Shown: positions 34,277 through 63,514 of the stretch, piece after piece
How positions within the stretch are numbered: the first letter of the stretch is position 1
How the letters are laid out: every line of letters begins with the position of its first letter
DNA from: Oscillospiraceae bacterium
Lineage (GTDB): Bacteria; Bacillota; Clostridia; Oscillospirales; Oscillospiraceae
Length of the DNA: 64,000 nt
Assembly (NCBI GenBank): GCA_902785905.1
Contig: CADAAM010000001.1
Span: 27,320 to 91,319, forward strand
Reading direction: 5' to 3'
Position numbers and translations under genes: made by a program
Notes under the pieces: model-generated
Database searches by the model: none
What the model was told of the DNA's origin: nothing
What the model saw: only the letters and a program-made list of their open reading frames with translations

Positions 34277-34582
34277 CTCATATAACTCCGTAAGTGTCGG
34301 TATTCTCCGGTTTATCGCATACTCTCTTGCTCTTCTCAAAAGAGAGCCCGATTACAACAAGTATATGCAATCAGGCTCCCGCTGTCAAATTTTTCTTTTT
34401 GCGGTCCCGGCAGCTTCTCGCCGGGATAATGGGCGCATCTATGAAAAGCCTGACAAGGCTTTTTTGTGCTCACAGGATGATTCTTGAATACAGGACATCG
34501 ATGATTTATAATAAGATGCAGAATTAGAGTGCTTGTTCAGGCGGATACATCGGGATTTCAATAACAGAAAGGTCATCCGGAG

Positions 34583-35307: not shown

Positions 35308-35366
35308 ATTCCAGTTTGTCGGGAAATCGCTAAATCGAAATTTGGAAACTATGAAAGGATAGTAAT

Positions 35367-35674: not shown

Positions 35675-35701
35675 GCTGCAAACTCCAGTTAACAGTAAAG
35701 T

Positions 35702-35746
35702 AAAAAAAGGGGGGCTGTTGCAAAACTCTTATTTTGCAACAGCCCC
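35702..35746 (-). terminator. Strong hairpin with a flanking A7/T7 run
   Basis: 15-bp stem ggggctgttgcaaaa / ttttgcaacagcccc. On the minus strand it is followed by T7. No intact minus-strand gene ends just upstream of it. Confidence 0.5.
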
Positions 35747-35749
35747 GAT

Positions 35750-35778
35750 TTACTGTGAAAGCTCCGCTTCTACAGTAA
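35750..35778 (-). repeat. Copy 1 of an 11-bp-stem GGA-triloop hairpin repeat (partner at 42225-42252)
   Basis: The minus strand reads tactgtagaagc GGA gctttcacagta. A 21-nt core (gaagcggagctttcacagtaa) is identical to 42232-42252. Confidence 0.7.
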
Positions 35779-35962
35779 ATAATGTATGTATACCAATCAG
35801 CGATTCGGATTTGCAGGTCTCTTTCACTTATACGCCTGTATAACCTTCTCTGTACTCGGCGTATCATGGTGTAAATCTCTATACTGTGCCGGCACTGCTC
35901 ATACTGACTTTCATTAAGAAGAAGAAGACAACATCTTCTTTTAACAGCGCCTTGTGGCGCGT

Positions 35963-36044
35963 TGAAAATCGTATGAGACGTCAGTTGCGTCAGCAACTGT
36001 ATGCCGCCGCAGGTGGCATCTTTTCAATAAAAAGTGTCGACTTT
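35963..36044. repeat. Right copy of the perfect 82-bp inverted repeat (partner at 26407-26488)
   Basis: 82/82 reverse-complement identity, verified by eye in 10-mer blocks. Confidence 0.9.
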
Positions 36045-47918: not shown

Positions 47919-48641
47919 GTGATTTATAAAAAGCAAGGACGTGTTCCGGCCAGCATGTGTGACAGTGGGGCAAAGCTTTCACCGTTGGCACTGCTCCAGC
48001 TTGAGGAAGATGCGGTTACAGAGCTCATGGGAGATCTCCATATCGACGGACTCACCGCCATGCGGGAATACAACGCGATGTGGGTATTTGTCAAGAATGC
48101 TGTGCAGGTATTCCAGCGTCCGGCGTGGAGAGAGGAATATGAGCTTCGCAGCTTTGTATCCGGACATTCAGCAGCAAAACTATTGATCGACACAGAGCTG
48201 TGGTCAATGGCGCATAGCAAGCCGCTGTTTCATGCGCGGCTGGAATTGTGCGCACTGGATCTGGAAACCGCTCGTATCCGCAAAGCTGCAACAGTCGGTG
48301 TTTCGGATGATATGCCCTGCGAGGAGGCACTCCCGGAGCTGTCGTTCACCCGCTTTCCCCGAAGCAGCTTAACCCCGCTTGAAACAGTAAAGGTTCGGGC
48401 AACGAATCTTGACTACTGTTCCCATACAAACAATATTGAGTATATGCGCTTTATTTTGAACACTTACACGGCAAAGAATTTCCTGGAGCGGGAGATTGCC
48501 GGGATTGAGATTCACTATGGGAATCAAACCTTCGAGGGAGATGAAATTGAAATTTTCAAACACTCTGATTTGCAGGCCGACTATTTCTCTCTTGTGTCAA
48601 ATGGCAAAACATCTGTTGACTGTTTCCTTTTATGGAAATGA
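47919..48641 (+). CDS. Acyl-ACP thioesterase family protein
   Basis: 240 aa in a double hotdog layout with a GTG start. The family call rests on overall resemblance only. Confidence 0.55.
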   Translation: MIYKKQGRVPASMCDSGAKLSPLALLQLEEDAVTELMGDLHIDGLTAMREYNAMWVFVKNAVQVFQRPAWREEYELRSFVSGHSAAKLLIDTELWSMAHSKPLFHARLELCALDLETARIRKAATVGVSDDMPCEEALPELSFTRFPRSSLTPLETVKVRATNLDYCSHTNNIEYMRFILNTYTAKNFLEREIAGIEIHYGNQTFEGDEIEIFKHSDLQADYFSLVSNGKTSVDCFLLWK

Positions 48642-48732
48642 GTTACTCCTATCATATGCCATATGCTGGGAGTATTTGTGACAGTCCTGATCATGTCGAT
48701 GCTCCTGTCATCTACAAGGAATAGGAGATTTT

Positions 48733-50286
48733 ATGGAACATAGACGACACTGTTTCCTTCCTCTGATTTTGATTATATGTCTGCTGATGACCACCGGCTG
48801 CCGCACCTTTCAGGCTCCCATTTCAGGCGGTGTGAATGAATCGAGCACCTACCTTGTTCGCGAGGATTGGGCTGATGATGTTAAATCGTCACTTAATGAG
48901 CTGATTGCGACCTATGGAAAAGACGGAACTGCTCCGGCTGACCGTCCGTATGCAGTATTTGATTTTGACAACACCTCTTCTATTTTTGATGTGGAAGAAC
49001 AGCTTGTCGTTTATCAGCTCCAGGTAATGGCATTCGCCCTTCAGCCGGATGATCTGAGAATGGTGCTGCTCAGCGGGCTGACGGATGTTGACAGGGATCT
49101 GACGGATTTCGGCTATGGCAGCGGCTCGCTGAATGACTGGGTTGACGATATTGATTACGCCTATGGCGCACTGTGGGAAAAATACGGTCCGTTTACCGCA
49201 AAGGGAGTTGATGCTGACAAGCTTGCCGAAATTCAGGCAGATCCTTTCTGGAAGGAATTCTCGACAAAAATGCGCGCGCTCTATTCTCTCGTATATGACG
49301 CGCAGTCCGCGATTATCGCATATCCGTGGGTGACATATTGGTTTACCGGGATGACGGAAGAAGAAGTATACGAGCTTTCAAAAGAGGCATTCGCTGCGTA
49401 CATGGACGTTGACACTTCCGTCGTTACGTGGACCAGTCCCGAAAGCATTCAGTCTAAGACAGGTGTCGTGCATTTTGAGTGGACAAGCGGTATTCAGGTG
49501 ACGGAAAACATCAGAGAGCTGTGGCACGCATTGGATATAAACGGTATTGATGTATGGGTATGTTCCGCATCCTGTACAGGCGCGATCCGAGCGGCGATCG
49601 ACACATTCGGTCTGCACGATTACTGTACCGGAATGCTCGGCATGACAAACGAGACAGACGCCGACGGAAAATATATTGCCGAATTTGATGCGGAAGCCGG
49701 TTGTGGTTTTTATGCGAACAAAGACGGCTCCTGGACTCGTATGGAACGTCCGACAAAGGCGCAGACTCTGGGCGTCGGTAAGGTTACGGCGATCGCAAAT
49801 GCCATTGCTCCCGAATACAACAACCATGGCCCGATCGCCGGCTTTATGGATTCAACGGGAGATTTCAACTTCTGCACAGAGTTTGAGACGCTCAGACTCG
49901 TCGTATGCTTTAACCGAGCGAACAGAAAGGTGACCGATGGGGGCGGGCTGATTGCCGAGCTTGCGGTGTATCAAAAGGAAACACTCGGTTATGACCTGAA
50001 AAAGGCGAATGACGCGGGTGATACGCTTTATGTTCTTCAAGGCAGGGATGAAAACGGCAGACGAACGCTGCGCAGCAGCAATAAAACCATCCTTTTCGGA
50101 AGCGAAGAGGAAACGCTGTTCAAAAATGCCGATAATGACGCGCAGCTTCAGAAAATGATCGATGATCGTATGACAACAGAGGATATTCTGGATTACTGGT
50201 CCTTAAAAAGCATTGCAGGAGAAAACAGCTTTGAATTTGATTCCGGATTCCTTACGGAATATGCGGGATACCACAGTCATCCTTAG
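48733..50286 (+). CDS. Secreted HAD-superfamily lipoprotein (phosphatase-like)
   Basis: Lipobox LMTTGC and the HAD motif I AVFDFDNTS. 517 aa. Confidence 0.55.
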   Translation: MEHRRHCFLPLILIICLLMTTGCRTFQAPISGGVNESSTYLVREDWADDVKSSLNELIATYGKDGTAPADRPYAVFDFDNTSSIFDVEEQLVVYQLQVMAFALQPDDLRMVLLSGLTDVDRDLTDFGYGSGSLNDWVDDIDYAYGALWEKYGPFTAKGVDADKLAEIQADPFWKEFSTKMRALYSLVYDAQSAIIAYPWVTYWFTGMTEEEVYELSKEAFAAYMDVDTSVVTWTSPESIQSKTGVVHFEWTSGIQVTENIRELWHALDINGIDVWVCSASCTGAIRAAIDTFGLHDYCTGMLGMTNETDADGKYIAEFDAEAGCGFYANKDGSWTRMERPTKAQTLGVGKVTAIANAIAPEYNNHGPIAGFMDSTGDFNFCTEFETLRLVVCFNRANRKVTDGGGLIAELAVYQKETLGYDLKKANDAGDTLYVLQGRDENGRRTLRSSNKTILFGSEEETLFKNADNDAQLQKMIDDRMTTEDILDYWSLKSIAGENSFEFDSGFLTEYAGYHSHP

Positions 50287-50421
50287 TCTCAAATGCCAGA
50301 TTCAGGAATTGTATATTTCAGTTTTTCTGCTTTCTTCCATCCATTTATCCCTTGTTCCCGCATCAGACACGTTATATAATACAGCTGATCAATCAGATCA
50401 TTTTATGAGGGAGTGAAGACA

Positions 50422-50946
50422 ATGACGTTTATGGAATTGGCACGCAATCGTTATTCGGAAAGGCATTTCGATTCGCGGCCAATAGAAGATGAAAAACTTC
50501 AGATGATACTGGAGGCGGGACGTATCGCACCGACGGCATGCAACTATCAGCCACAGCACATTTATGTCCTGAAAAGCCCGGCTGCATTGGAAAAGGCATG
50601 TATAACAAAGGCCTCACTCTATTCATGCCCGCTCGCTCTTCTGGTCTGCTATGACAGTAAAACTGTTTGGAAAAATCCCGGTGATCGCTGTTATGAGCTT
50701 TATAACGCCGGTGAGCAGGACGCGAGCATCGTCGCGGCGAGCATGATGTTCGAAGCTGAGGAGCAGGGCATACATAGTTTATGGATCCGCGGCTTTGACT
50801 CCAGGACTGTAATGGACACCTTTGATCTGCCTGCCAATCATATTCCCGTTATGATGCTGGCACTGGGATACCCCGGTGAAGACAGCCACCCTGCTCACCT
50901 GCATTCCAAGCGTAAATCGCTGGATGAAACCGTTACTGTCCTTTAA
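50422..50946 (+). CDS. Nitroreductase family protein
   Basis: ELARNRYSERHFDSRPI...ILEAGRIAPTACNYQP motifs. The ATG at 50422 follows GAGGGAG. Confidence 0.85.
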   Translation: MTFMELARNRYSERHFDSRPIEDEKLQMILEAGRIAPTACNYQPQHIYVLKSPAALEKACITKASLYSCPLALLVCYDSKTVWKNPGDRCYELYNAGEQDASIVAASMMFEAEEQGIHSLWIRGFDSRTVMDTFDLPANHIPVMMLALGYPGEDSHPAHLHSKRKSLDETVTVL

Positions 50947-51200
50947 TCGTGCCCCCGTATCTAATATCTACCACCCAAATTTGATCTTGAACCGCCCCTG
51001 CTGTGACGAATCCATCATGACGTGAAACCCAGCAGGGTCCGACAAAACGGTCCGAAGGGATCTGATCAACGATCTTGCCATCCTGGACGAAGTGAAACGG
51101 TGCGTCAACATGGGTTCCGTTATGGACGCACATGGAGAAGGCCGTCAGGCTGCATACTGCTCCAGCTTTAATGGATGAAAGTGTGTTTCGCATTGGCGCG
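50933..51200 (-). pseudogene. Fragment of a cyclase/arylformamidase-family gene
   Basis: The HNGTHVDAPFHF motif (HxGTHxDAPxH) is present. The N terminus is lost in the hairpin array and the C-terminal half of the family is absent. Confidence 0.5.
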
Positions 51201-51206
51201 GGATAA

Positions 51207-51436
51207 GGCACCCGGAGATTTTTCTCAGGGTGCCTCAAGCTGTCGGCAAAGTGTCGACAGCTTGAGAGGCAAAAATGGGAACTTCCGAAATAGTTCCCAT
51301 TTTTGCGCGGATTGTACGTGAAGGGGGACTCCCCGTCCCCCTTCACAGATCCCCCTTACAAGACCAACTTGGTTTGCAAGGGTTTGTCTACGGCCTGAGG
51401 CACCCGGAGTTTTTTCTCCGGGTGCCTTTATTTTTT
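51207..51436. repeat. Array of six back-to-back stable hairpins; the first and last are near-identical direct repeats
   Basis: H1 51207-51234, H2 51234-51266, H3 51271-51304, H4 51318-51346, H5 51353-51382 and H6 51399-51426 followed by a T-run. Stems are 7-13 bp. H1 and H6 share ggcacccggag..ttttctc..gggtgcc. Confidence 0.8.
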
Positions 51437-51453
51437 CAAGGAAGGTGAAAACA

Positions 51454-51814
51454 ATGTCCGCCGCAAAGGCACAAGTCTCCCCGGCTGCCTCTGAAACAAG
51501 TCCTGAAGATCAGTCCGGCTGTCGCGCTCGACCCGTTCTTTGCGGAGCTGACCTGCTCGGAGGGGATCTCGGAAAAGATCTTCGCGCTCCTGAATCTCCA
51601 TCATCCCGCAGACAATACCGCACGCTCGCTGTCTGTCTCGGGTTTCGTCGAATACGAGCATGACGACGGCAGCCGCACAGTGTATTTCAGCGGCACGGTC
51701 AGGTTTATTCGGATATTCTTTGACCCGGACAGAATTCAGCCGTTTGCCAGGGTGTTTGTCGGCTTTCCGCCGGACGCCGCCCCGTCTACCTTTCCCATAC
51801 AGAACAGTCCGTAA
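51454..51814 (+). pseudogene. Candidate small CDS with a start-proximal frameshift
   Basis: The ATG at 51454 has the RBS GGAAGGTG. After about 10 codons the protein-like reading (..LKQVLKISPAVALDPFFAELTCSEGISEKIFALLNLHH..VYFSGTVRFIRIFFDPDR..) continues in the +1 frame to the TAA at 51812-51814. Removing one base from the C4 run would join the frames. No family was recognised. Confidence 0.3.
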
Positions 51815-53504
51815 CGGCATACGGGTTCTTGAGGGCCATCATGGCGCATTGTTTGGCAAGCCTGATGTTTTCCTCCGTCACGCCGACGCATGGGCCGCAT
51901 CCTCCCGGTGGCGCCTTTTCCGCCGCCCATTCATCTGTAGGCATAAACTGCAGACCGTAAAGTGCAGGCAGTTCCCTGCACAGCTCGGCAATACGGCCTG
52001 CCGCCGCATAACCCGCTGCGAGCGGTCCGATCCCCTGCTGCAGGTGTCCGCCGGTGTCTTTGGCGAAATAGCCGCTGTCGCCGGTTTCCGCTGCAAAGGA
52101 GCAGGTGCGAAGATTCTGGACAGCAGTACCACCGGGCAGAACCGCGCTGATGTAGGGCGTATCCATCGCCCTCTCAGCGAAGTCGGCAATCATCTGAAAA
52201 TGCCGGTTGGAGCGCTCCATCTCCGTTTCGCCCTCCATCCAGTCATCCAGCCAGGGATCTCCCGGCTTGCGCGCCTGGGCAATGTTATACACAAGCAGCG
52301 CGGGATAGCGTATATAATCCGTGACAAGCGCGGCGAAATCGCAAAGGCCCGTAAAGTCATGAAGGTTTTCCACACTCTGCTGCAGAATGATCATGTCCCA
52401 TTCATATCGATCAAGTGCCTTCTGCGGGGTATAGGGTTCGGGCTCGCTGACCCACTTCCCCACTGTACTGCGATATTCGCTGTAGCGCTCGTACTCTGCC
52501 GGGATTCCGCGTCCCGCGTTGCCGCCGTTGAATTTTTCCGTGTGCCGCGCCAGAGTGCAGCCGCCGTCATAGCAGATGCCCATGACGATCTCCGTCTCCG
52601 GCATCATCTCTTCCAGGAGCATCGGCAGGTATTCCAGCGTACTGTATGTGAAGGAATTGCCGAAAGCCAGGATGCGCAGTACCGGGCGGATCTGCCGGTC
52701 CAGCGGCAGGGCGTCGCGGCAGGTAAAGCTTTTGATTCTTCCCGTATCCGCCCAAATGATGTTGGCGCCCTGGTTGCTCAACAGCGGAACGCAGTCCACG
52801 TAATATTCCTGCGGCTCCTCCAGCTCGTAGCTGATCATAACCGGGTTTTCGGCAAACCACGCGCCGGCCGCTTCCTTTGAGGTAAACACGGCCTGGTTCT
52901 TGAGGCAGACGTCGATCCCGCCGCTTGTTTTGGAAATAAAAAGATCGTAATTGTCCCAGGTTGCCGTCGTCTCCAAGGTATAGAAGCGATCGCACAGCAG
53001 GGTTTTCAGCTCTTCGTCGGTGTTCAGGGACTGGAGACCGATTCCCGGAAGCCTGACGGTTACGATTCTGCGATCGGCATTGATGCCGGCAATATCCTCC
53101 TGCCCCTGCAGGAGCTTTCCGGCACGGGTAACAATCAGCCGCCCGTTGATCGCGTCGTAGGTGCCCCCCAGAACGATGCCCGCCTCCTCGGGAAATTCCA
53201 CCGTGTAAATCCTCGTCTCGACGCTTTCGTCCCCGGCATGCATGATCTGACAGGCCCTGTAGCCGTTGATGGTGCGGGGATTGTCCGGGGAAGGCGTTCC
53301 GCTGCCCTCCACGCTCTCACTGATTTCCACGACAAATTCTCTGGGCGGCAGGCCGCCTCTCTCGTCATAAAACAGCACCTTTTCCGTGTTCTCAAAATGT
53401 CTGTCCTCCTCTGCGGGCACCTGCCCGGCACAGGCGGGGCAGCAGCCGAGCTGGATCAGAATGCTGAGCAGGATCAGCAGAACAGTCCATTTTCTTTTTG
53501 GCAT
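51786..53504 (-). CDS. Secreted protein with C-terminal DUF4886/SGNH-hydrolase-like domain
   Basis: Signal peptide MPKRKWTVLLILLSILIQLGCC and the ILAFGNSFTYSTLEYLP motif typical of DUF4886. The ATG at 53504 follows GGGGAG. Confidence 0.5.
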   Translation of the reverse strand: MPKRKWTVLLILLSILIQLGCCPACAGQVPAEEDRHFENTEKVLFYDERGGLPPREFVVEISESVEGSGTPSPDNPRTINGYRACQIMHAGDESVETRIYTVEFPEEAGIVLGGTYDAINGRLIVTRAGKLLQGQEDIAGINADRRIVTVRLPGIGLQSLNTDEELKTLLCDRFYTLETTATWDNYDLFISKTSGGIDVCLKNQAVFTSKEAAGAWFAENPVMISYELEEPQEYYVDCVPLLSNQGANIIWADTGRIKSFTCRDALPLDRQIRPVLRILAFGNSFTYSTLEYLPMLLEEMMPETEIVMGICYDGGCTLARHTEKFNGGNAGRGIPAEYERYSEYRSTVGKWVSEPEPYTPQKALDRYEWDMIILQQSVENLHDFTGLCDFAALVTDYIRYPALLVYNIAQARKPGDPWLDDWMEGETEMERSNRHFQMIADFAERAMDTPYISAVLPGGTAVQNLRTCSFAAETGDSGYFAKDTGGHLQQGIGPLAAGYAAAGRIAELCRELPALYGLQFMPTDEWAAEKAPPGGCGPCVGVTEENIRLAKQCAMMALKNPYAVTDCSVWER

Positions 53505-53511
53505 GAGCAAA

Positions 53512-54939
53512 TCACTCCCCGGTTATTTCATTTCTCAGAAGCGGCAAGTCCTCCAGCGTGAGGACGGCGTCACTGTCATAGACTTTGCGCAGCATTTCGG
53601 GTTCGGTATATTCTGGCGAATACGTACCGTTTTTCACCACATACTCTTCATTCCAGGTGCAGAACCAGGACCAGTGGACATTGGCCTGCAGGCACCGATC
53701 AATATCCGGGACAACGCCGTTTTCCGTCAGTGCCGCGATCTTTCCTTTCCCGGGATATTCGGTCAGCTCCGTAAATCTATCCGTCAGAGGACCGTATTGA
53801 CGGGGCAGCGTATAGACGTCCACCCCGACGATATCCACATAGTCGTCTCCCGGATACCAGTCCGGATCCTGACAATTGCAGACCCAGATCAGATTGTTGC
53901 AGTGATAGACGTCGGTAAGCATCTCATACAGCAGGATCCAGAGCTGCTTATAGGCCTCCGGTCCGGCCGCCCCCCACCAGAACCAGCCGCCCGACGCCTC
54001 ATGGAGCGGCCGCCACAGGATTGGGACCCCTGCCGCCTCCAGACGCTTGAGCTGAACGGCAATGGCTCCGATGTCCTGCAGGAGGGCCTGCATGCCGTCG
54101 GGGTCCTCTCCGTTCAGGGCGCGTTCGAGATCAAAGGTGCAGTTCTCCTTCAAATAACCGTGCCACCACGGTATCTCGCTTACGCCCTGGCCGACAGGCA
54201 GTATCGTATCGGGCGGCGCAGTCCAGTGCCAGGAAAAGGTGACGATCCCGCCGTGCTCATGGTACTCGATGGCGCGGTCCACGCTTTCGCCCTGCCTTGT
54301 CATAAAAGCCTGCCTGCTCGGGGTATAATCGGCCATATCCAGCCCGAGCAGCGCCGGATGCTTCCCCGTGAGCGCATGGATTGCGGTGATCTCCTTGCTG
54401 TTGAGCCCGTCCGGCGCGTATTGTCCGGACAGAGTATACTTTCCGTAACAGTCCTGCAGGAAGCGGTACAGCGCTTTTGTCTCCTCCGTGGCATTTGAGT
54501 TGCAGAGCGCTGACGTCACCGCATAGTCGCTGTCAGGGACAGGCTCTGCCCGCGTCACCGCGACGTTGTCCAGGTAAAACCAGCCCCAGCCCTCCTGTAC
54601 GCGCAGCTCATGCTCTCCCGCGGTGAGAGCCGTCCTGTACAGAACGTCGGAGCCGTACACGCCATCCGGGCATCGTATCTCTCCGATTTGAACGTCGTCC
54701 ACAAATACATAATTTATTTTTTCGTTGCCGATCCCCTTCCCGATAAAGGTCAAATCGTAAAATCCGTCCTGCGGCGCCTCAATGTGAAACACGACGCAGT
54801 CACCCTTCGAGGAGAATCGGCCGACCGCCCTTCCCCTGGAGGCGTCACCGTCCTCCACAATCTCATTGCTTCCCGTCAGGGTCGCCTGCTCCGCCTCATA
54901 AACCGCGTCCTCTGCCGCAGCGAAGCAGCTTGAAAGCAT
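53512..54939 (-). CDS. GH26 beta-mannanase with N-terminal carbohydrate-binding module; the signal peptide is in another frame upstream
   Basis: CBM6/35-like AVYEAEQATLTG...YLDNVAV. GH26 motifs FSWHW and WRPLHEASGGWFWWG. See the finding on 54937-55042. Confidence 0.8.
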   Translation of the reverse strand: MLSSCFAAAEDAVYEAEQATLTGSNEIVEDGDASRGRAVGRFSSKGDCVVFHIEAPQDGFYDLTFIGKGIGNEKINYVFVDDVQIGEIRCPDGVYGSDVLYRTALTAGEHELRVQEGWGWFYLDNVAVTRAEPVPDSDYAVTSALCNSNATEETKALYRFLQDCYGKYTLSGQYAPDGLNSKEITAIHALTGKHPALLGLDMADYTPSRQAFMTRQGESVDRAIEYHEHGGIVTFSWHWTAPPDTILPVGQGVSEIPWWHGYLKENCTFDLERALNGEDPDGMQALLQDIGAIAVQLKRLEAAGVPILWRPLHEASGGWFWWGAAGPEAYKQLWILLYEMLTDVYHCNNLIWVCNCQDPDWYPGDDYVDIVGVDVYTLPRQYGPLTDRFTELTEYPGKGKIAALTENGVVPDIDRCLQANVHWSWFCTWNEEYVVKNGTYSPEYTEPEMLRKVYDSDAVLTLEDLPLLRNEITGE

Positions 54940-55207
54940 CAGTGCCAGGACGAAAAGGGCAATGCCGAAACAGGTGCGCAGAAGCCGGCCGCCTTTCCCT
55001 GTGCGCTCCGATTCGTAAAAAACAGCGTTTTGCAGTCCTCATACCCCCTCTCATTTATGCTGTTTAGTTTACCTCTTTTCTCTGTAAAAGTAAAGCCGTC
55101 ATACGTCATAATAACATACAAAATTCCTGAGAAACATCCCGGCCTGTACGTTAGTCGCAAAGGCGCAAGAACATGTTCGTTATGCGGAAAATCAAGGCCT
55201 CATTGTC

Positions 55208-55236
55208 TTGAAAAGCACGCCCCGGCATGTTATAAT
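55208..55236 (+). promoter_or_regulatory. Sigma-A-like promoter
   Basis: TTGAAA, a 17-nt spacer, then TATAAT. It lies about 330 nt upstream of the next start codon. Confidence 0.5.
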
Positions 55237-55568
55237 TAGTTTTGTATGCAGACTTGACGTGCTGTCACCGTACTGTCTGCGCGCGGGATACGCCCATGTA
55301 CAGAATGAAGTCTGCCCGGAGAACGAAAAAGGATATTCCGTTTTTATACCGGGTGATAATGGTATTATCACCTCTGTATGTCAGATTGGTTGGGTGATTC
55401 GGCATATAGCGGGGACTTTTGCCGCGGGATTGCTTTCCCGGAAGAACGAATCGTCTCACACCGAAAGCGTCTGTTTTTCCCCAGGCCATCGGAGGACAGG
55501 GACAAGCACCCTGTCCTCGGGCCGACATGCGGAGATCGCCCTCTATATAAATGGTTTTGAGGTATGAA

Positions 55569-57143
55569 ATGAGAAGATTGATCTATATTCTTGTCGTTTT
55601 TATTCTGATCGGCGGTATTATTCTGACTGCCTATGCGCCGGATGATGTCTCCACCGTGTTCATCGTGATGATGGAGGTCATTGTGTTTGCCGGGGTCATA
55701 CTCGGCATTTTCCCCGTGCTGCAGTATTACCGCGCTCTTGAAATCGGACTTGAGAACATTGAGCGGGCGCTGGAGGTACAGACAAGCTCTACCTGGTCGG
55801 TCATGGCACAGATTGAGGACTTTTTCCATCAGCGCACCATGGACGATATTTTTCATGACTATCAGGAAAAGATTCAGATCCAGCGGGACTCCGGGCAGGT
55901 TCTGACTGATATTGAAGACTACCTCAACGAGGATGTGCTGGCGCTGAGAAGCTGGCAGAACATTATCGCGCAGATTCCGGGCACATTGACCGGTCTCGGC
56001 ATCCTGGGCACGTTCATCGGCCTGATCATCGGTATCCGCGGCATCGGCTTCAGCTCGGTTGAAATTGCGCTGACCAGTGTGCAGACGCTTCTGTCCGGTA
56101 TTCAGGTGGCTTTCTATACCTCCATCGCGGGCATGATCCTGTCCCTGATCTTCAATATCACCTACCGTATCTCCTGGAATATGCTTCGGAGAAATCTGGG
56201 GCTGTTCATCGACGAATTTCATAAGAACGTTATTCCGCCCGTGGGCGACCAGATCCGTTACCGCGACCAGAAGCAGGCCAAGCAGATTACCGAGCTGCTG
56301 GAGCGTCTGCCGAAGAACCAGGGCTTCTCGGCCGCGGGCGGTCAGATCGGCGGCGGCGCAAACGTGCAGAACAGCGGGAATGAGCAGATCCTGATGCCTC
56401 AGATCCTTGACGGCCTGCGAAACGGCGAGTTTATCTTCTTTCTGCAGTCCAAATATGATCTGAACACGCGCAGGGTGATCGGCGGCGAGGCTCTCGTACG
56501 TTGGAATCACGGCAAGCTCGGCATGGTCTCGCCCTCCGTGTTCATCCCCATTCTGGAGAACAACGGCTATATCACGAAGCTCGACCGATATATCTGGGAG
56601 AGTGTGTGCGCCACCATCCGCCGCTGGATAGACAACGGCATACGTCCGGTCCCCCTGGCTATCAACGCCACCAAGACCGATGTCCTGGCCATGGACATTG
56701 CGGGCTTCTTTGAAGAAATGATCAAAAAGTACCGCATTCCGCCGCGCTGTCTTGAGATTGAGATTGCGGAGAACGCATATCTCGAGTCCCCGCAATCCGT
56801 TCTTGAGGCGGAGACCAAACTGCGTCAAACGGGCTTCCGTGTCATCGTGGACGGCTTCAACGGGGATTACATCTCCCTCAGCGCGATTGAGTCGCTGTCG
56901 GCGGATATCCTCAAGCTCGATCTTCGCCGCTTTGACGGGCGGCAGAATCAGGGCGCGCTCAGCGCCGTGTTTGACCAGGCCAGAAGACTGAAAATGTCTG
57001 TCGCGGTGGAAGGTATCGAAAGCATGGAGCAGTTGTCCATGCTCCGCAAGTGCGGCTGCTCGGAGGGGCAGGGTTTCTATCTGTCCAAGCCGCTTCCCCT
57101 GGATGAGTTTGAAAAGCAGATTACCGGAGGAAGCGGCAAATGA
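55569..57143 (+). CDS. MotA/TolQ/ExbB-like ion channel domain fused to a C-terminal EAL (c-di-GMP phosphodiesterase-type) domain
   Basis: Four TM helices. The last two (IAQIPGTLTGLGILGTFIGLIIGI and VAFYTSIAGMILSLIFNITY) fit the MotA/ExbB/TolQ signature. A Gly-rich linker follows, then EAL motifs EALVRW, AINAT, EIEIAEN, VDGFNGDY, KLD, VEGIE and GQGFY. The ATG at 55569 follows GAGG. The ORF track starts at 55551. Confidence 0.75.
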   Translation: MRRLIYILVVFILIGGIILTAYAPDDVSTVFIVMMEVIVFAGVILGIFPVLQYYRALEIGLENIERALEVQTSSTWSVMAQIEDFFHQRTMDDIFHDYQEKIQIQRDSGQVLTDIEDYLNEDVLALRSWQNIIAQIPGTLTGLGILGTFIGLIIGIRGIGFSSVEIALTSVQTLLSGIQVAFYTSIAGMILSLIFNITYRISWNMLRRNLGLFIDEFHKNVIPPVGDQIRYRDQKQAKQITELLERLPKNQGFSAAGGQIGGGANVQNSGNEQILMPQILDGLRNGEFIFFLQSKYDLNTRRVIGGEALVRWNHGKLGMVSPSVFIPILENNGYITKLDRYIWESVCATIRRWIDNGIRPVPLAINATKTDVLAMDIAGFFEEMIKKYRIPPRCLEIEIAENAYLESPQSVLEAETKLRQTGFRVIVDGFNGDYISLSAIESLSADILKLDLRRFDGRQNQGALSAVFDQARRLKMSVAVEGIESMEQLSMLRKCGCSEGQGFYLSKPLPLDEFEKQITGGSGK

Positions 57144-58834
57144 AGCGGAAGAAAAATCATAATGACGAGGGGCTGAACTTCTGGCAGCCGGCATCCGATA
57201 TGTTCAGCGCGCTGATGATGATCCTGATGCTGATCATTCTGCTTCTTTGTCTTTATCTTGTACATATTCCCGACAACAGCCAGATTGATCCCTGGTACGG
57301 TGATGAGGAGGGCGGCAGCTGGGACGAGGACGGACGCCCGACGCCCACCATGATCGTCTGGTCGGACGACGACGGGGGCGGCGGGCACACCTTCACACCC
57401 GAACCGACGCCGACACCCACGCCCACGCCAACTCCCACACCGACGCCTACGCCAACTCCCGATCTCCCCGGCAGCGGCGGCGGAGGCGGCGGCGGTACCG
57501 GCGGCGGAAACGGAGCGGGCGAAGGCCCCGGCGACAAGCCGGATACGGGTCTCAAGTCCGCCGTATACGTCATGCTTGTAGACGCGGAAACAGACCGCAC
57601 CATCAAGGAGCCGAATGTGCAATTCGAGCTTTACGGCGGTGAAAACAACGCCCTCCAGATTCTCAACACCTACTATCCTGAACGGCTCTCCTTCCGTTTC
57701 TATGAGACCACCGAGGCCGGGACCTTCTTCTTCCCGGAAAAGCTGATGCTCGGCTCTTATGAGCTGCACGAGCTCTCCGAGCCGGAGGGCTACGACATAT
57801 CCCAGAACATTCCTTTCCTTCTGGCGGACACCTATGATTGGGAGGATCCCTTCGTTGTGCGCGTTCCGGTGATGCCCTCAAAGAATGTCGTCCGCATACA
57901 CATGGTGGACGCCGCGACAGGGCGCAGCATTTCCGGCGGCAGTTTCGATGTCGTTGCAGCCGCAAACATCATCACCGCAGACGGCACGCTGCGCTGTCGT
58001 GTGGGGCAGGTAGTTGACGAGCTTGTCTGCGATGAAGAGGGATTTGCCGAAAGCACGCCTCTCTATCTCGGACAATACGTTCTCCGGCAGCGTGAGATCC
58101 CCCAGTACTACGCAGGGATTTTGGAGGAGACACCGGTTGCGGTCGAAAAGGCATCCAAGGTTGCGGCCGTGCCGGAGGTTGTCTCCAGTGCGCGCATGCG
58201 GCTTCGCTTTAAGCTGACGGATGAGCTGAATGCCTCCCCCATCTCCGGCGTCCCCTTTGAGATCGTCTCAGGCCGCGGCGAGCATCTGGAAGCCGTAACC
58301 GCTGCGGACGGCAGCTTCACGCTCGACGCCCTCGACAAAGGGACAAACTATCGCATCCGCCAGCTTGATACGGTTGGAAGCTATCGCATCACGACGCCGG
58401 AAACCATTGTCCAGATCGACCCGCTCGGCTATGTCGACGGGGAGGCGGAAAGCGTTGTTGAGGGTACCAACCGCATGATCCGCGTCCAGATCGGCATTAC
58501 GCCCGAATTCGGCAAGGTACAGATCCCCGGCATCAATCTGGCCCTGTACTCGCCCCAGAATGAGCTGATCCGCACCTGGACCACTACCGGGACCGAAGCG
58601 GTCTTCGATTCCCTCGTACCGGGTTCCTACTATGTTGTCAAGGGCTCCGACAAGGAAACCCGCTATGATATCCGCATACTGGATACCGCCGAAGTCCAGC
58701 AGATCATGCTGCACGACAGCTTTACGGTACACTATGTGATCTACGGCGCAGCGCTGCTTCTGTCGATCGGTCTGATCATTCTTCTGGTCACGCGGATCCG
58801 CAGGAAGAGAAAAAAACGGCAAAGCGCCGCATAA
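57140..58834 (+). CDS. MotB/ExbD-like N-terminal TM anchor, PT/Gly linker, four Cna-B/SpaA-like Ig-fold repeats, C-terminal TM helix
   Basis: ATGA overlap with the upstream gene. The N-terminal FWQPASDMFSALMMILMLIILLL resembles the MotB TM helix with its invariant Asp. Then come the (TP)n run, a Gly run and four repeats of about 95 aa with the pattern v.v..vD..t...i.g..f.l....G.....l..G.Y.l.E...P.GY. The C terminus is YGAALLLSIGLIILLVTRIRRKRKKR. There is no OmpA-like domain and no LPXTG motif. Confidence 0.7.
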   Translation: MKRKKNHNDEGLNFWQPASDMFSALMMILMLIILLLCLYLVHIPDNSQIDPWYGDEEGGSWDEDGRPTPTMIVWSDDDGGGGHTFTPEPTPTPTPTPTPTPTPTPTPDLPGSGGGGGGGTGGGNGAGEGPGDKPDTGLKSAVYVMLVDAETDRTIKEPNVQFELYGGENNALQILNTYYPERLSFRFYETTEAGTFFFPEKLMLGSYELHELSEPEGYDISQNIPFLLADTYDWEDPFVVRVPVMPSKNVVRIHMVDAATGRSISGGSFDVVAAANIITADGTLRCRVGQVVDELVCDEEGFAESTPLYLGQYVLRQREIPQYYAGILEETPVAVEKASKVAAVPEVVSSARMRLRFKLTDELNASPISGVPFEIVSGRGEHLEAVTAADGSFTLDALDKGTNYRIRQLDTVGSYRITTPETIVQIDPLGYVDGEAESVVEGTNRMIRVQIGITPEFGKVQIPGINLALYSPQNELIRTWTTTGTEAVFDSLVPGSYYVVKGSDKETRYDIRILDTAEVQQIMLHDSFTVHYVIYGAALLLSIGLIILLVTRIRRKRKKRQSAA

Positions 58835-58887: not shown

Positions 58888-61227
58888 TTGCAGGAAACGG
58901 AAGCACAAAGCAGCGGGATACGGGTTCGTGTAAGCGATCTGCTCTTCGCGCTCCAAAAGCGGTGGATGGTCATTGTTGCGCTTTCTCTTGTAGGGCTTAC
59001 CTTTGGTCTGATTCTGTCTGCGATGACGGTGATACAGTCCTCCTATCAGACCTTCAATGTCTCCGGCTCCTTTGCCGTCACGTCCAAGAACGTCAACGGC
59101 AAATATGTCGGCGGCTATGATGTTCCGAACATCAACGACTTCCATCTGGCCGAGGATATGGTGGATGCGGTTCGCTACGTGATTCGCAGCGATCATGTCC
59201 TGGGCGAGGTCATTAACCGGAACGAGCTGCTCGGCTATACCATCCCGCAGCTGCGCAACGCCATCACCGTGACGCAGTACAACACGACGCAGGTTCTTGA
59301 GATGAAGATTATCTGGCGCAACGCGGAGGAGGGCGTCGCCCTCTGGAATGCCATTGTCGAATGTGCCAGCGACATTCTTCCCGAGACTCTGCAGCTCGGT
59401 TCCCTCGCTGTGATCAACGAGCCGCAGGCCGAACAGATCGGCGTTGTCGGCAGCGGCAACAACAAAGTCGTGCTGCTCACGCTGCTGGGCTTTGCGGCCG
59501 GTGTCGGCTTTGCGATCATTGAACTGCTGATGCACCCTACCCTAAACAACGTCCGCGACGTGGAGACCGTCTTCGGTCTGGAAACCATCGGCATCGTCCC
59601 GCGCGAACCAGAGTTTTACAAACACAAGGGCTCTATCATGACGCAGGAGGATATCGGCAGCTCTGTTGCGGCGCAGAATTTCTCTGCGGCGGCATATATT
59701 CTCCGCAATCGTCTTGGCACGAAAGAGGGACACCATTGCTTCTATGTCACCTCCGCCGTGTTGGGCGAGGGCAGAACAACGGTCGCCGCGAATCTGGCCA
59801 TTCAGCTTTCGGACATGGAGCACCATGTGCTGTTGGTCGACTTCGATACCCGCAATCCCAGACTCGGCGCACTGTTTCTGAACAAGGTCGACTATGCCCA
59901 TTCGCTCAACGCCCTTTACCGCGGCGACGCTACCGAGGATGATGCCATCACGACGCTGTCCGGCTATCTGGATCTGCTGCCCGCGGTGCTGGAGCACAAC
60001 TCTATCAGCGTGGACAGCACGCTCATCGAACTTCTTGACAAGCTGAAGCAGAATTATGAATATGTGATCCTTGACGCGCCCCCCGTGGGCGTGGTCTCCG
60101 GTACGCTCAGCCTGAACCAGATCGCAAACAATGTGCTCTTCGTCATCGGTTATGACATTTCCACCCTGCCGGAGATTCAGAGCTCTCTTGAGAAGCTGGA
60201 CAAATCCGGCACCCGGGTGCTCGGCTGCGTGGTCAACAACGTCGTCACGGGCGGCGCGCTGGGTATGAAGCAGACGGCGGACGATTACAAGAAAAACATC
60301 AGCAAGAAAGCTCGCGCAAAGAAGCAGGAAGAGGAAAAGTTCGGCTTTGACGACGCAAGTCACAACACGCCGGTCTTAAAGCGAAAGCGCACGCGCCCGA
60401 AGCTTCTCGGCAAAAAGAAGGCCCCCGCGGCAGCCATTCCGGACAGCGACGGCCAAATCGCGCAGCGGCGAAACGTCTACGAAGATTCCATGAATCGTCC
60501 GGAATCAAAGCCTGTTCCGATGGACGCGAATGCCGTCACGCAGGAGCTTGTCGAGATCGGACTCAAGGGCAGCTGGGGAACGGAAGCACAGACTGCTCAA
60601 GCGCAGCAGCAAATCCGAATTGAAAAGGAAGTGCCGCTTCCCTCTTCTGCGGCCGCGGAGTCCGAAAGTTCGGCCGCAGAAGAGACGTCCCAGCCTCCGA
60701 CGGAGCCGACGGTCCCCGTATACGCCGATCAAGAGTCGGAAGAGAGAGTCTCGCATCCTTCTCCGCCAGCGAGTGTTCCGGCCGAAGAAGCGAAAGAGCT
60801 GTCTTCCGCAGTCTCCGAGTCGGCGGAAGATCCCTCAGGCACTGATGAGCCGGAACCGGCCGGGACGCCTGCATCTGCCCGGGTGCGCGTCGAAAAACAG
60901 GCAACGTGGAAGCTGCCGTTTTTCATCCTGCTGGCGATTCCCCTGACGCTTGCGGGCGTTCTGCTCCTGCTGGCTGTCGCCGCCGGAATCTTTGCCGCCG
61001 GGGCCGCCCTGGTCTTCTTCTGCGGTTCCTGTTTCCTGTCGGCTCTTACGACCTTTCAGCTTACTGAAGAAAAGCTGGTCGCGCTCGGACTTGCGCTGTT
61101 GTCGCTGGTAATTGCGCTTCCCATTTTCCGGCTGATGGTGCTGGTACCCGCGCGGGGGATCCCTGCGCTCTTCCGGACCGTGACCGCACTCGGAAACAGA
61201 TGGTGCTTTGAGGAGGTCGCGCTATGA
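58888..61227 (+). CDS. Wzz (chain-length determinant) fused to a BY-kinase-like P-loop domain, with a long acidic/Ser-Pro-rich extension and three C-terminal TM helices
   Basis: TTG start after AGGAGG. Two TM helices bracket an extracellular Wzz-like domain. Walker A-like GEGRTT (Arg where Lys is expected), Walker A' LLVDFDTRNP and Walker B YVILDAPP. No C-terminal Tyr cluster was seen. Confidence 0.75.
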   Translation: MQETEAQSSGIRVRVSDLLFALQKRWMVIVALSLVGLTFGLILSAMTVIQSSYQTFNVSGSFAVTSKNVNGKYVGGYDVPNINDFHLAEDMVDAVRYVIRSDHVLGEVINRNELLGYTIPQLRNAITVTQYNTTQVLEMKIIWRNAEEGVALWNAIVECASDILPETLQLGSLAVINEPQAEQIGVVGSGNNKVVLLTLLGFAAGVGFAIIELLMHPTLNNVRDVETVFGLETIGIVPREPEFYKHKGSIMTQEDIGSSVAAQNFSAAAYILRNRLGTKEGHHCFYVTSAVLGEGRTTVAANLAIQLSDMEHHVLLVDFDTRNPRLGALFLNKVDYAHSLNALYRGDATEDDAITTLSGYLDLLPAVLEHNSISVDSTLIELLDKLKQNYEYVILDAPPVGVVSGTLSLNQIANNVLFVIGYDISTLPEIQSSLEKLDKSGTRVLGCVVNNVVTGGALGMKQTADDYKKNISKKARAKKQEEEKFGFDDASHNTPVLKRKRTRPKLLGKKKAPAAAIPDSDGQIAQRRNVYEDSMNRPESKPVPMDANAVTQELVEIGLKGSWGTEAQTAQAQQQIRIEKEVPLPSSAAAESESSAAEETSQPPTEPTVPVYADQESEERVSHPSPPASVPAEEAKELSSAVSESAEDPSGTDEPEPAGTPASARVRVEKQATWKLPFFILLAIPLTLAGVLLLLAVAAGIFAAGAALVFFCGSCFLSALTTFQLTEEKLVALGLALLSLVIALPIFRLMVLVPARGIPALFRTVTALGNRWCFEEVAL

Positions 61228-61439: not shown

Positions 61440-61465
61440 CAATTTGACAGAAAGGAGCCGTGAGA

Positions 61466-62161
61466 ATGGCGCGTTTCGGAAATATTGACGCCATGCAGCT
61501 TTTGCTGATTGTGATCCTGCTTCTGTGCGGCTATTTCTTCCTCTTCCAGGCAGTGGCGAAGCGGGCGGCAAGCCGCTCCTCTGTCCCGCTGCTGGCAATC
61601 GTCCTGTTGCTGGTATATCTGCTGGTTTCTCTGCCGCTTGTGCTGATTATCAGTCAGATGGGCGACCTGAGCTTCACCTTCCTGGCTTTGCTGATCCTCG
61701 CCACCTTCATCGGTGTCATCGCGTTTTTTCACTTTGTTTTTAAGCATTACCGGGAAATCAACAAAGGGATGCTGTTGCTTTTTCTTCTCTATCTGCTGAT
61801 GATGAGCTATGTCACCGTTTTTTCGCGCCGCGGGCGTGTGCAGACGGACATCCTGCTGAAATTCGATTCCGTCGAGGAGGCTCTCCGCCGGCATTCGCTG
61901 GAGCCGCTTCAGCATCTGTGGGCCAACATTGCGATGTTTGTGCCGATCGGGATGCTCTTTCCCGCGATCTGTCCACAGCACCTTAACAAGTTATCCTATG
62001 TACTCCCGCTCGGCATGCTTCTGACAACGCTGATTGAGACGACGCAGCTCATGCTGCGTATCGGCCAGTGCGATCTGGAGGATATGATCGCCAACACCAT
62101 GGGGGCCTGTGTGGGGCTGCTGTTATTTCGCCTGTACAGGCGCTTCCAGTCCCGGGCCTGA
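61466..62161 (+). CDS. VanZ-family membrane protein
   Basis: ANIAMFVPIGMLFP ... IETTQL ... DLEDMIANTMGACVG motifs. The ATG at 61466 follows AAGGAG. Confidence 0.75.
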   Translation: MARFGNIDAMQLLLIVILLLCGYFFLFQAVAKRAASRSSVPLLAIVLLLVYLLVSLPLVLIISQMGDLSFTFLALLILATFIGVIAFFHFVFKHYREINKGMLLLFLLYLLMMSYVTVFSRRGRVQTDILLKFDSVEEALRRHSLEPLQHLWANIAMFVPIGMLFPAICPQHLNKLSYVLPLGMLLTTLIETTQLMLRIGQCDLEDMIANTMGACVGLLLFRLYRRFQSRA

Positions 62162-62200: not shown

Positions 62201-63514
62201 ATGCAGAACAGGAGAGCCGTCGAGCGTGATATCTATGTCGAACTGATCGTCGTATTCTGCATCCTCATCTCTCTGGGCTTTCCGGGACAATTTACGAAAA
62301 TCTACGGGGATCGCTTCGATAAGCTCTGTGAATACGGGGCGTTTTTCGCGGAAATCCTGCTGATCCTCACATCCAACGCCAAGCAGTTGGGCGATATTGA
62401 GCTTCTGAATCTCAAGCGGAAGTATGCCGTTCTTTATCTGTATGTCGGCGCTGTGACGGTCGTCTCCATGCTGGTGACCAGCGATCGTTCCGAGGAGATG
62501 ATCACCTGCCTTCGCTGGATCGTGACGCTGCTGTTTGCCATCTGGCTGCAGGAGTTCTATTCTACGGAAAATCTGCTCAGGCTCATTGCCATCGCGCAGG
62601 GTACCTTTGTTGCTTTGACACTGTTTTTCATGCTTCGCTATTCCTATTTAAGCTACGATCCCGAAGTGCCGGGGGCGATCCGCGGTATACTCGGCACGAA
62701 GAACGGCTGTGCCACCGAGCTGGCTTTTGGCATTCTTGTCACGATCCTGGTCATAAGAACCGAACATCACCGCCGTCGGCCCCTCATGCGCTGGGTCACC
62801 CTTGTCATGGTTCAGTTCGTGTTGCTGATGATGGCAGATGCGACCGGCGCGCTGTTTACTCTGGTGATCGCCCTGGTTCCGGCACTGCTGCACCGCAGCT
62901 TCCGTCTGCCCCTCGGTCTGCTGTACATAGCGGTCAACGTGGTGTTCCTCTTTGCGATGCTCACGCTGATGCCCCTGTTTGAGGGTCTTCTTGAGGCCAT
63001 AGGGAAGGATGCGACCCTGACCGGGCGTATTCCGCTCTGGCGGCAGATTATCGATGTCATGTCCACACATAAAACCATGACCGGCTATGGCTACGGCATG
63101 TTCTGGCGCGATCCCATTGCGGTAGAAATGATCCATACGGGCTTTAACCGCCGGCACAACGACTTTATGGCCAGTATTACCTCGGGCGCGCACAATGTGC
63201 TGCTGGAGATGTGGCTGAACGTCGGACTGCTGGGGGTCGCGGAATACTTTTTTGCGCTGCTCGGTTCCTTCCGTCGTGTGGAAGAGATGGAGAACAGCCC
63301 CTATCTCTTCAGCTGCGTCATGATGATCTTCCTCATGATCAACGGCCTGACCGAGCGATGCCTCGCCTCCAACTACGATTACAAGACGCTGGTGCTGTTT
63401 CTGGTGATGGCGATGGGCTGCAACAAGCGCGCCGCTTCCGTCTACGCCCTGCGCGGCAGCGGCAGCGCCGTCATCCATGAGGCGTCTGACAGCTCTCTGT
63501 CAGACGCCGGATGA
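62201..63514 (+). CDS. O-antigen ligase/polymerase family protein (Wzy-like)
   Basis: About 11 TM helices with the Wzy_C-type loop ..HTGFNRRHNDFMASITSGAHNVLLEMWLNVGLLG. Confidence 0.75.
   Translation: MQNRRAVERDIYVELIVVFCILISLGFPGQFTKIYGDRFDKLCEYGAFFAEILLILTSNAKQLGDIELLNLKRKYAVLYLYVGAVTVVSMLVTSDRSEEMITCLRWIVTLLFAIWLQEFYSTENLLRLIAIAQGTFVALTLFFMLRYSYLSYDPEVPGAIRGILGTKNGCATELAFGILVTILVIRTEHHRRRPLMRWVTLVMVQFVLLMMADATGALFTLVIALVPALLHRSFRLPLGLLYIAVNVVFLFAMLTLMPLFEGLLEAIGKDATLTGRIPLWRQIIDVMSTHKTMTGYGYGMFWRDPIAVEMIHTGFNRRHNDFMASITSGAHNVLLEMWLNVGLLGVAEYFFALLGSFRRVEEMENSPYLFSCVMMIFLMINGLTERCLASNYDYKTLVLFLVMAMGCNKRAASVYALRGSGSAVIHEASDSSLSDAG

Follow-up and report, generated by a model that had tools for sequence, protein, structure and literature searches.

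We analysed a 64,000-nucleotide stretch of DNA (the window) from the genome of an uncultured rumen member of the Clostridia (Oscillospiraceae bacterium, assembly GCA_902785905.1, contig CADAAM010000001.1, forward-strand positions 27,320 to 91,319), in which protein annotation covers 36–64 kb. Judged from their sequences, two adjacent genes in the window, genes 1 and 2, appear to encode a small ion-driven rotary motor, kin of the flagellar stators and of the Zorya motor, whose channel subunit is fused to an EAL domain. An earlier, sequence-only reading of the window had described a stator-like two-gene module with this fusion, and that observation is confirmed. On balance, we favour the interpretation that the pair is a 5:2 ion-driven unit of the ZorAB type, controlled by cyclic di-GMP (c-di-GMP), which was recruited, in monoderm Clostridia of gut and rumen, to polysaccharide assembly of the Wzx/Wzy type. 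The sequence-only reading knew of no described family of this kind, and the openly searchable full-text literature likewise yielded no account of EAL fused to MotA or ZorA, nor of polysaccharide loci with a stator-like pair. Zorya-type proteins were left out of the trees in a recent survey of MotAB homologues, which did not mention EAL.

A translationally coupled gene pair

The coordinates and reading frames given for the two genes by the sequence-only reading were right:

55569–57143, + strand: gene 1, a ZorA-like channel subunit (MotA/ExbB superfamily) fused to an EAL domain, 524 amino acids
57140–58834, + strand: gene 2, a ZorB/MotB-like B subunit, 564 amino acids, whose start overlaps the gene 1 stop (ATGA)

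The overlap noted between them is also real. Their junction reads ggcaaATGAagcgg, in which the stop and start codons share ATGA and GGAGGA lies just upstream; tight junctions between the two genes are found in relatives too. We place the start of gene 1 at 55569 and not at the upstream ATG at 55551, because nearly all gene 1 homologues begin with MRRLIY.

The channel half of gene 1 resembles ZorA

The membrane half of gene 1 comprises the following features:

55569–56303, + strand: ZorA-like membrane core, residues 1–245, defined by PF01618, ZorA alignments and hydropathy
55977–55979, + strand: codon of ion-pathway residue P137
56010–56012, + strand: codon of ion-pathway residue T148
56121–56123, + strand: codon of ion-pathway residue S185
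56304–56375, + strand: Gly/Ala/Asn-rich, low-confidence linker, residues 246–269, with a predicted local distance difference test score (pLDDT) below 50 and variable in the alignment of close homologues (A2)

Gene 1 matches Pfam MotA_ExbB (PF01618) over residues 91–201 at 34.9 bits, above the cut-off of 22.9. The two helices previously assigned to a MotA/TolQ/ExbB channel correspond to transmembrane helices 2 and 3 of ZorA, and the assignment can be refined to ZorA-like. The best NCBIfam and PADLOC matches of the N-terminal half are to ZorA models (PADLOC ZorA1, E = 8.5e-20), and a precomputed Pfam family, PF28082, named 'ZorA-like_t1', matches all gene 1 homologues. Against the NCBIfam ZorA models, the best score is 61.9 bits, which is below the cut-off of 100 (NF033915), and the other models fall further below theirs. 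As a fold search with the gene 1 model was swamped by EAL domains, the channel half was judged by sequence searches of the Protein Data Bank (PDB). Here, the closest structures are ZorA chains from 8VVN, 8QYD and 8VVI (E = 1.3e-10 to 2.6e-5), led by 8vvn_C at 1.3e-10 and with 8qyd_A also among the best; the ZorA-chain matches that support a place in the MotA/ExbB/TolQ/ZorA superfamily span 1.3e-10 to 1.9e-7.

The alignment of gene 1 with Escherichia coli ZorA is gap-free over both inner helices and pairs ZorA P136, T147 and S184 with P137, T148 and S185. These three residues do not vary among 32 close homologues (alignment A2), nor among 16 wider-clade members at 35–52% identity (alignment A4). 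In E. coli Zorya, ZorA Thr147 and Ser184 touch the essential Asp26 of ZorB and act as an ion filter; the D26N mutant and the T147A/S184A double mutant are both dead (PMC11946911). By homology, the gene 1 channel is specifically ZorA-like.

Hydropathy and an AlphaFold2 (AF2) model place the hydrophobic helices at residues ~4–22, 28–50, 136–157 and 175–198; a cytoplasmic domain of ~85 residues separates the second from the third. The AF2 model (pLDDT 78.5) adds a conserved helix at 225–245 after the fourth membrane helix. Since this helix is followed by a disordered linker and then by the EAL fold, the EAL domain would be cytoplasmic and loosely tethered.

Gene 2 joins a ZorB-type helix to a rod of immunoglobulin-like domains

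The B subunit is laid out as follows:

57185–57280, + strand: N-terminal ZorB-type membrane helix with the motif FWQPASDMFS
57197–57199, + strand: Asp20 codon, corresponding to ZorB Asp26
57281–57547, + strand: flexible extracellular linker (acidic stretch, (TP)n, poly-Gly), residues 48–136, pLDDT below 50
57554–58717, + strand: four tandem immunoglobulin (Ig)-like domains of the SpaA/CnaB/SdrD-B type, residues 139–526, pLDDT mostly 85–95
58721–58834, + strand: C-terminal membrane helix (residues 528–555) and basic tail KRKKRQSAA, with no spacer after Ig domain 4

In an alignment of 30 gene 2 sequences, the N-terminal segment LNFWQPASDMFSALLLILMLVILLLGLYLVHIPE is nearly invariant, and the motif W-Q-x3-D-x2-(S/T), with Asp20, is kept in 27 of the 28 clusters (90% identity) formed by the 75 clade loci described below. 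The sequence-only reading had likened this segment to the membrane helix of MotB, ExbD and TolR, and it does outperform a random membrane helix. In a search of 177,635 PDB sequences with a 52-position profile of the gene 2 N terminus, Zorya B subunits took the first three places (8vvn_B, E = 0.015; 8vvi_A, E = 0.022; 8qyd_F, E = 0.16), and they come from the same Zorya complexes as the top matches of gene 1. All three chains align W-x5-D-x2-(S/T) at their own N termini, with the Asp falling on ZorB Asp26. The PADLOC model of ZorB (ZorB1) matches residues 2–40 of gene 2 (E = 2e-4) and, among 1450 open reading frames (ORFs), the gene 2 family profile finds the first ~65 residues of the OmpA-type B subunits that lie beside outgroup ZorA genes (E = 1e-7 to 6e-6). 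Individually these scores are modest, while their concordance makes a strong sequence-based case for homology of the gene 2 N terminus to ZorB. The orthologue at one locus (L010, 7199–8869; metagenome-assembled genome (MAG) RUG12517) reads WQPASALFS, which points either to a sequence error or to a unit that no longer works.

The remainder of the protein was described correctly from the letters alone, as Pfam and AF2 bear out. The AF2 model consists of a helix (15–41), a disordered region (46–136), four beta-sandwich domains (139–526) and a second helix (529–563). The linker, with 23 Gly, 17 Pro and 15 Thr in the 91-residue stretch 46–136, is found in all homologues and varies in sequence. Pfam identifies three SpaA domains and one SdrD_B domain in the place where an OmpA-like domain had been reported missing, and neither OmpA nor MotB_plug matches gene 2. 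The nearest Foldseek matches of the Ig domains are Gram-positive pilins and the Bacillus anthracis TIE protein. No LPXTG-type motif occurs in the 30 aligned homologues, in which a conserved INIHTSYxxxY leads straight into the helix, and no CTERM sorting-domain model in NCBIfam matches gene 2. Because there is no such sorting signal and the helix follows Ig domain 4 directly, we describe the geometry as a membrane-rooted rod with a leash attached at its tip. Isopeptide-bond triads were also sought in the Ig domains; the first-strand positions read K, N, R and N across the four domains, with no consistent pattern, and we make no claim for such bonds.

The EAL domain is probably a c-di-GMP receptor

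The C-terminal half of gene 1 carries one domain:

56403–57092, + strand: EAL domain, residues 279–508, Pfam EAL (PF00563), 183 bits

The sequence-only reading called this domain complete, which holds for the fold and fails for loop 6, where the motif at 56850–56876 is DGFNGDYIS in place of DDFGTGYSS. With Foldseek, the gene 1 EAL domain reached TM-scores to target of 0.86–0.88 against MorA, BifA, RocR and TBD1265. The signature residues EALVR, N366, E398/E401, D428, K449, E481/E484 and Q501 are kept; across the family the substrate-contact motifs are mostly retained, and the catalytic-base motif E481-G-I-E484 (EGxE) is conserved. An alignment of ~90 family sequences to a family model shows no canonical loop 6 and no Asp at the second position of DDFG, where Gly predominates and Ser, Asn, His or Arg make up the rest; in the close family, G429 does not vary. 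The abundant human-gut clusters have Lys, Arg, Gly or Gln in place of the Glu that stabilizes loop 6 (position 401), and in the most distant family members most signature residues are gone.

In the two-metal mechanism of EAL domains, the second Asp of DDFG binds the second metal. As this metal-binding Asp and a canonical loop 6 are missing, sensing is the likelier of the two roles, c-di-GMP sensing or degrading, that had been offered for the domain, which is more probably a receptor for c-di-GMP than a normal phosphodiesterase. We read the domain as one selected for c-di-GMP binding over fast turnover, in which residual or regulated hydrolysis may persist. Where the EGxE base is present and signatures are altered, activity has been classed as 'uncertain', not 'absent' (PMC12900916).

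The module recurs in polysaccharide loci of gut and rumen Clostridia

Genes 1 and 2 are followed, in the same direction and with short gaps, by three further genes:

58888–61227, + strand: gene 3, a Wzz-like co-polymerase with a P-loop domain resembling bacterial tyrosine kinases (BY-kinases), 779 amino acids, TTG start with AGGAGG upstream
61460–62161, + strand: gene 4, a VanZ-like membrane protein
62201–63514, + strand: gene 5, a Wzy_C or O-antigen-ligase-like polymerase

The fusion is not an assembly artefact, because more than 120 protein clusters at 60–97% identity to gene 1 and dozens of independent contigs carry it; over rumen and human-gut metagenomes, the clusters that have it run into the hundreds. 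A second and very abundant group, from the human gut (L019–L084), is a sister group at ~50% identity to gene 1; its single 90% clusters (proteins P0394, P0408 and P0510) have ~870–2000 members. Eleven species-level genomes have the fusion, all of them MAGs of uncultured rumen Clostridiales, Ruminococcaceae, Christensenellaceae and Oscillospiraceae (L001–L011). Their gene order is kept as far as the contigs reach, and nine of the eleven have all five genes, with gene 4 and gene 5 each syntenic in nine; the contigs of L006 and L009 end before gene 4. Across the same genomes, identity drops to 65% for gene 1 and 44% for gene 2, and the flanks differ.

An exhaustive search of the channel half against 1.84 billion representatives returned 56 clusters at E ≤1e-30, which fall into three groups: EAL-fused proteins of ~520 amino acids, EAL-less proteins of ~255 and, beyond them, ZorA-like proteins of 450–860 amino acids with coiled-coil-like tails. 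A metagenome scan added 80 loci, and 75 loci of the clade, equivalent to 28 clusters at 90% identity, were analysed. In every one with sufficient contig, a ZorA-like gene (with or without EAL), an Ig-rod B-subunit gene and a Wzz/P-loop gene follow one another in this order. The pair heads cell-surface polysaccharide gene clusters of the Wzy type, and at none of these loci do Zorya effectors adjoin it. The tie to exopolysaccharide genes is therefore much stronger than the sequence-only reading, which had proposed it from position alone, supposed. Other neighbours encode a priming sugar transferase, GDP-mannose enzymes, glycosyltransferases, UDP-glucose dehydrogenase, Wzy_C proteins and a pyruvyl transferase. 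At one locus (L010), genes for a GGDEF protein (324–1679) and an EAL-PAS-GGDEF protein (1911–4820) lie directly upstream.

Genuine EAL-less genes, encoding 253–265 amino acids, keep the pairing with the B subunit (L014, L015, L099, L100 and L103). In a further variant (P0271 in L017; 1972–3462, 496 amino acids), an unrelated C-terminal region of ~240 residues replaces EAL within the same triad and a polysaccharide locus. This region is made up of an acidic stretch of low complexity and a ~170-residue domain that no Pfam family matches; a diverged EAL domain was ruled out, since profile comparison aligns residues 16–227 only. Because EAL-less members keep the triad, we regard the triad as the conserved core and EAL as an accessory of one large sub-clade. 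An apparent standalone relative of 255 amino acids in L013 (405–1966) was rejected because its EAL part lies in an overlapping ORF, which marks the copy as split or frameshifted. L025, L060 and L064 resemble it, in that their ZorA-like and EAL parts are overlapping separate ORFs, either truly split or the result of frameshift errors.

At ~30% identity, the outgroup is Zorya-like. Its ZorA-like proteins (550–860 amino acids) carry coiled-coil-like tails and are paired with short OmpA-type ZorB proteins, in one case together with a MutH-like gene. In that locus (L018, 3778–9274), a tailed ZorA-like gene, a ZorB gene with OmpA, an unannotated gene of 393 amino acids and a MutH-domain gene of 490 amino acids may make up a variant of Zorya whose nuclease is of the MutH type.

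Loss of the kinase tyrosine cluster accompanies the EAL domain

Gene 3 contains the domains of a PCP-2b/BY-kinase protein, with Walker A′ and B motifs, and departs from the full definition at two points, the Walker A Lys and the C-terminal Tyr cluster. Its Walker A motif is GEGRTT (59764–59781), with Arg replacing Lys, and no 15-residue stretch holds more than 1–2 Tyr. An extension of ~200 residues rich in Pro, Ala and Glu and extra C-terminal membrane helices complete the protein. The same pattern extends across the family: in every EAL-bearing locus the best 15-residue stretch of the kinase has ≤2 Tyr and is followed by a long Pro/Ala/Glu-rich extension, and in several of these loci, including that of the window, the Walker A Lys is changed to Arg. 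The EAL-less loci with a complete gene 3 (L014, L015 and L017, the last with Wzy_C also after gene 3) have a GEGK(S/T) Walker A motif and 6–7 Tyr per 15 C-terminal residues. This distribution suggests that c-di-GMP input through the motor subunit may have replaced phosphotyrosine cycling.

Upstream region and other features of the window

Upstream of the module, the opposite strand carries a mannanase-like gene (GH26/CBM35) and a DUF4886 gene, and housekeeping genes that include a trp operon lie further upstream. The first two (51786–54939, − strand) are divergent from the module and are kept only in L001 and L002. One promoter-like site precedes gene 1:

55208–55236, + strand: TTGAAA-17 nt-TATAAT with a TG extension, 11 of 12 matches, ~330 nucleotides 5′ of gene 1

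As such sites are no commoner in this region than in shuffled sequence, it is a candidate only. It implies a long leader (~330 nucleotides), which is conserved only among the closest relatives. A riboswitch or structured leader upstream of gene 1 was considered and dropped, given the lack of wider conservation and of any Rfam match: a permissive scan of 54940–55600 gave nothing, and at the gathering threshold the only Rfam match in the whole window was a bacterial class A RNase P RNA (16284–16643, 217.8 bits). The G+C content is 0.46 at 34001–36000 and 0.49–0.51 at 48001–52000, against 0.57–0.66 elsewhere in the window, and a 517-amino-acid ORF at 48733–50286 has no Pfam or PADLOC match.

A proposed mechanism and its alternatives

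In the mechanism that we favour, genes 1 and 2 would supply the A and the B subunit, respectively, of a ZorAB-type membrane motor, probably driven by protons, in which five copies of gene 1 surround two gene 2 N-terminal helices (A5B2). Ions would pass via gene 2 Asp20 and gene 1 Thr148 and Ser185, and the A ring would turn relative to the B dimer. A leash of 90 residues would tie the B helix to the tip of the four-Ig-domain rod, ~15 nm long if each domain is taken as ~4 nm. Rooted by the second helix and lying in or against the wall or polysaccharide layer, the rod may serve as a fixed or force-bearing element that restrains the B dimer. The product of the adjacent gene 3 is the likely working partner, which would be acted on by the cytoplasmic face of the A ring or by the whole unit. 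The tethered EAL domain would most likely bind c-di-GMP without normal hydrolysis, as a regulatory input that switches the unit on or off and, in the EAL clade, takes the place of the phosphotyrosine cycle lost by the kinase.

Several points weigh against this interpretation. Stoichiometry and ion flow are extrapolated from homologues, and the structural predictions are of monomers only. The similarity of the B helix is short and its PDB E-values reach only 0.015–0.16, so that the case is one of concordance and not of any single score; the L010 orthologue, moreover, has Ala where the Asp is key. Both subunits have flexible linkers, so neither the EAL domain nor the Ig rod would be rigidly coupled to the rotor, which argues against rigid torque transfer through either. 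The EAL domain keeps most of its catalytic residues, the EGxE base among them, which leaves its activity 'uncertain' by the criteria of PMC12900916. The link between EAL presence and loss of the Tyr cluster may reflect a single evolutionary event, as only three EAL-less loci have complete kinase genes. Finally, all sequences come from metagenomes and their sources are metagenome-assembled.

The direction of signalling could also be the reverse: strain on the rod or leash would open the channel, ion flow or rotation would engage a weak but real phosphodiesterase activity of EAL, and the resulting local fall in c-di-GMP would tune the polysaccharide machinery. The tether-like layout of leash and rod fits this idea, as does the retention in the window of EALxR, N, ExxE, D, K, EGxE and QG. 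There are also precedents, since ZorAB of Zorya has been proposed to sense envelope perturbation and signal inward (PMC11946911), and stator-dependent surface sensing feeds c-di-GMP enzymes and holdfast synthesis (PMC8846402). We nevertheless consider it unlikely, although worth keeping in view. The second metal-binding Asp is missing family-wide and loop 6 is never canonical; abundant human-gut clusters have K, R, G or Q for the loop-6 Glu; the EAL-less members indicate that the core function needs no c-di-GMP domain; and loss of the Tyr cluster from the kinase in the EAL clade suits an input role better.

It is far less probable that the pair is no motor at all, the MotA-like part being an anchor or sensor for an ordinary EAL domain and gene 2 an independent adhesin- or pilin-like neighbour. 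Public annotation ('EAL domain-containing protein' for gene 1, 'hypothetical protein' for gene 2), the pilin- or adhesin-like ectodomain and the modest E-values of the B helix would permit this. However, the ion-path residues are invariant across the clade, the W-Q-x3-D-x2-(S/T) motif is near-universal (27 of 28 clusters), the genes are translationally coupled and stay paired where EAL is absent, gene 2 lacks an LPXTG motif, and its profile recognizes genuine ZorB N termini. We give still less credence to a Zorya-type anti-phage variant in which EAL stands in for the ZorA tail and effectors. The best hidden Markov model matches are to ZorA and ZorB, and the nearest outgroup loci are Zorya-like (tailed ZorA, OmpA-type ZorB, one MutH-like gene). 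Yet gene 1 scores under the NCBIfam ZorA cut-offs, the pair has neither tail nor peptidoglycan-binding domain, and synteny with polysaccharide genes is strict in varied chromosomal settings (for example, beside trp genes) that are not defence islands. Nor did the nine neighbouring genes yield a match to ZorC, ZorD, ZorE, ZorF, ZorG or any other PADLOC model, in line with the sequence-only reading, which had seen neither ZorCD nor flagellar genes nearby.

A bolder form of the c-di-GMP-controlled ZorAB-type unit, namely that monoderm Clostridia of gut and rumen use an ion-driven 5:2 rotary motor as an integral, c-di-GMP-gated part of their Wzy-dependent polysaccharide assembly, is one that we put forward tentatively and with less than even confidence. 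If true, the membrane potential would be mechanically coupled to polymerization, chain-length control or the passage of polymer through the thick wall, and the co-polymerase/kinase ring could be the driven partner, much as a stator drives the flagellar C ring. To our knowledge, few jobs are established for 5:2 ion-driven motors (flagella, Ton/Tol, gliding and type IX secretion, and Zorya defence), and the means by which single-membrane bacteria push long polysaccharides through their thick wall, or regulate that passage, are not understood. The module would thus add a new job and a new regulatory logic for these motors in such bacteria. The apparent exchange of EAL on the motor for a Tyr cluster on the kinase offers a concrete, testable idea of control and, as the family is common in human-gut and rumen metagenomes, it may bear on capsule, biofilm and aggregation of uncultured gut Clostridia.

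Comparison with known systems

Because the module lacks their defining features, it should not be filed under Zorya, flagellar stators or GldLM. The closest sequence relative of both subunits is ZorAB (E. coli Zorya; PDB 8QYD and related). The two systems have in common the inner-helix P/T/S motifs, an N-terminal W-x5-D-x2-(S/T) helix and adjacent, co-directional genes. Where ZorA has a long helical tail, however, the A subunit of the module has a linker and EAL, nothing, or another domain, and where ZorB has an OmpA-like peptidoglycan-binding domain, gene 2 has the leash, four Ig domains and a second membrane helix. Zorya is completed by the partners ZorC, ZorD and ZorE, whereas the module is without them and sits in polysaccharide loci.

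GldLM, the Bacteroidota motor for gliding and type IX secretion, is built 5:2, and its B-type subunit continues from one membrane helix into a long rod of Ig-like domains that extends outward as far as an envelope machine. Gene 2 shares such a rod, a likeness of architecture only, and there were no matches to the GldL or GldM Pfam families at E up to 0.1. Unlike GldLM, the module has a monoderm host, a second helix that roots the rod and a disordered leash of 90 residues before it; as this leash parts helix from rod, torque could not pass along it. In Myxococcus, AglRQS with Glt/Nfs is a MotAB/TolQR-like motor that acts on a surface polysaccharide, the spore coat. It differs from the module in its TolQR-like clade, diderm host, large trans-envelope partners and lack of a c-di-GMP domain.

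With CapAB, CpsCD and Wzc, gene 3 shares a Wzz-like part and a BY-kinase-like P-loop domain, and its EAL-less relatives have the classic tyrosine cluster; the gene 3 of the window, in contrast, has the Walker A Arg, no Tyr cluster, a low-complexity extension and added membrane helices. We know of no module of the CapAB/CpsCD/Wzc type that pairs with a stator-like unit. LapD and FimX exemplify EAL domains that bind c-di-GMP without turnover and signal to a membrane machine. The EAL family of the module resembles them in having neither the second Asp nor a canonical loop 6, but it keeps far more catalytic residues, including EGxE, and its partner is a motor subunit and not a HAMP/periplasmic output.

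Lastly, MotB and gene 2 share the order of helix, flexible linker and anchoring module, and differ in the anchoring module itself; the annotated 36–64 kb of the window contains no flagellar genes. In Caulobacter crescentus (DgcB, holdfast) and Pseudomonas aeruginosa (SadC), genetic links tie flagellar stators to the c-di-GMP enzymes behind polysaccharide production (PMC8846402). Flagellar MotAB with YcgR/MotI, DgcB or SadC thus resembles the module in tying a stator to c-di-GMP. In the known flagellar stators this link is made in trans, by PilZ proteins or separate cyclases, whereas in the module the domain is fused to the A subunit, which would be the first case that we have found of a c-di-GMP module built into the motor subunit itself.

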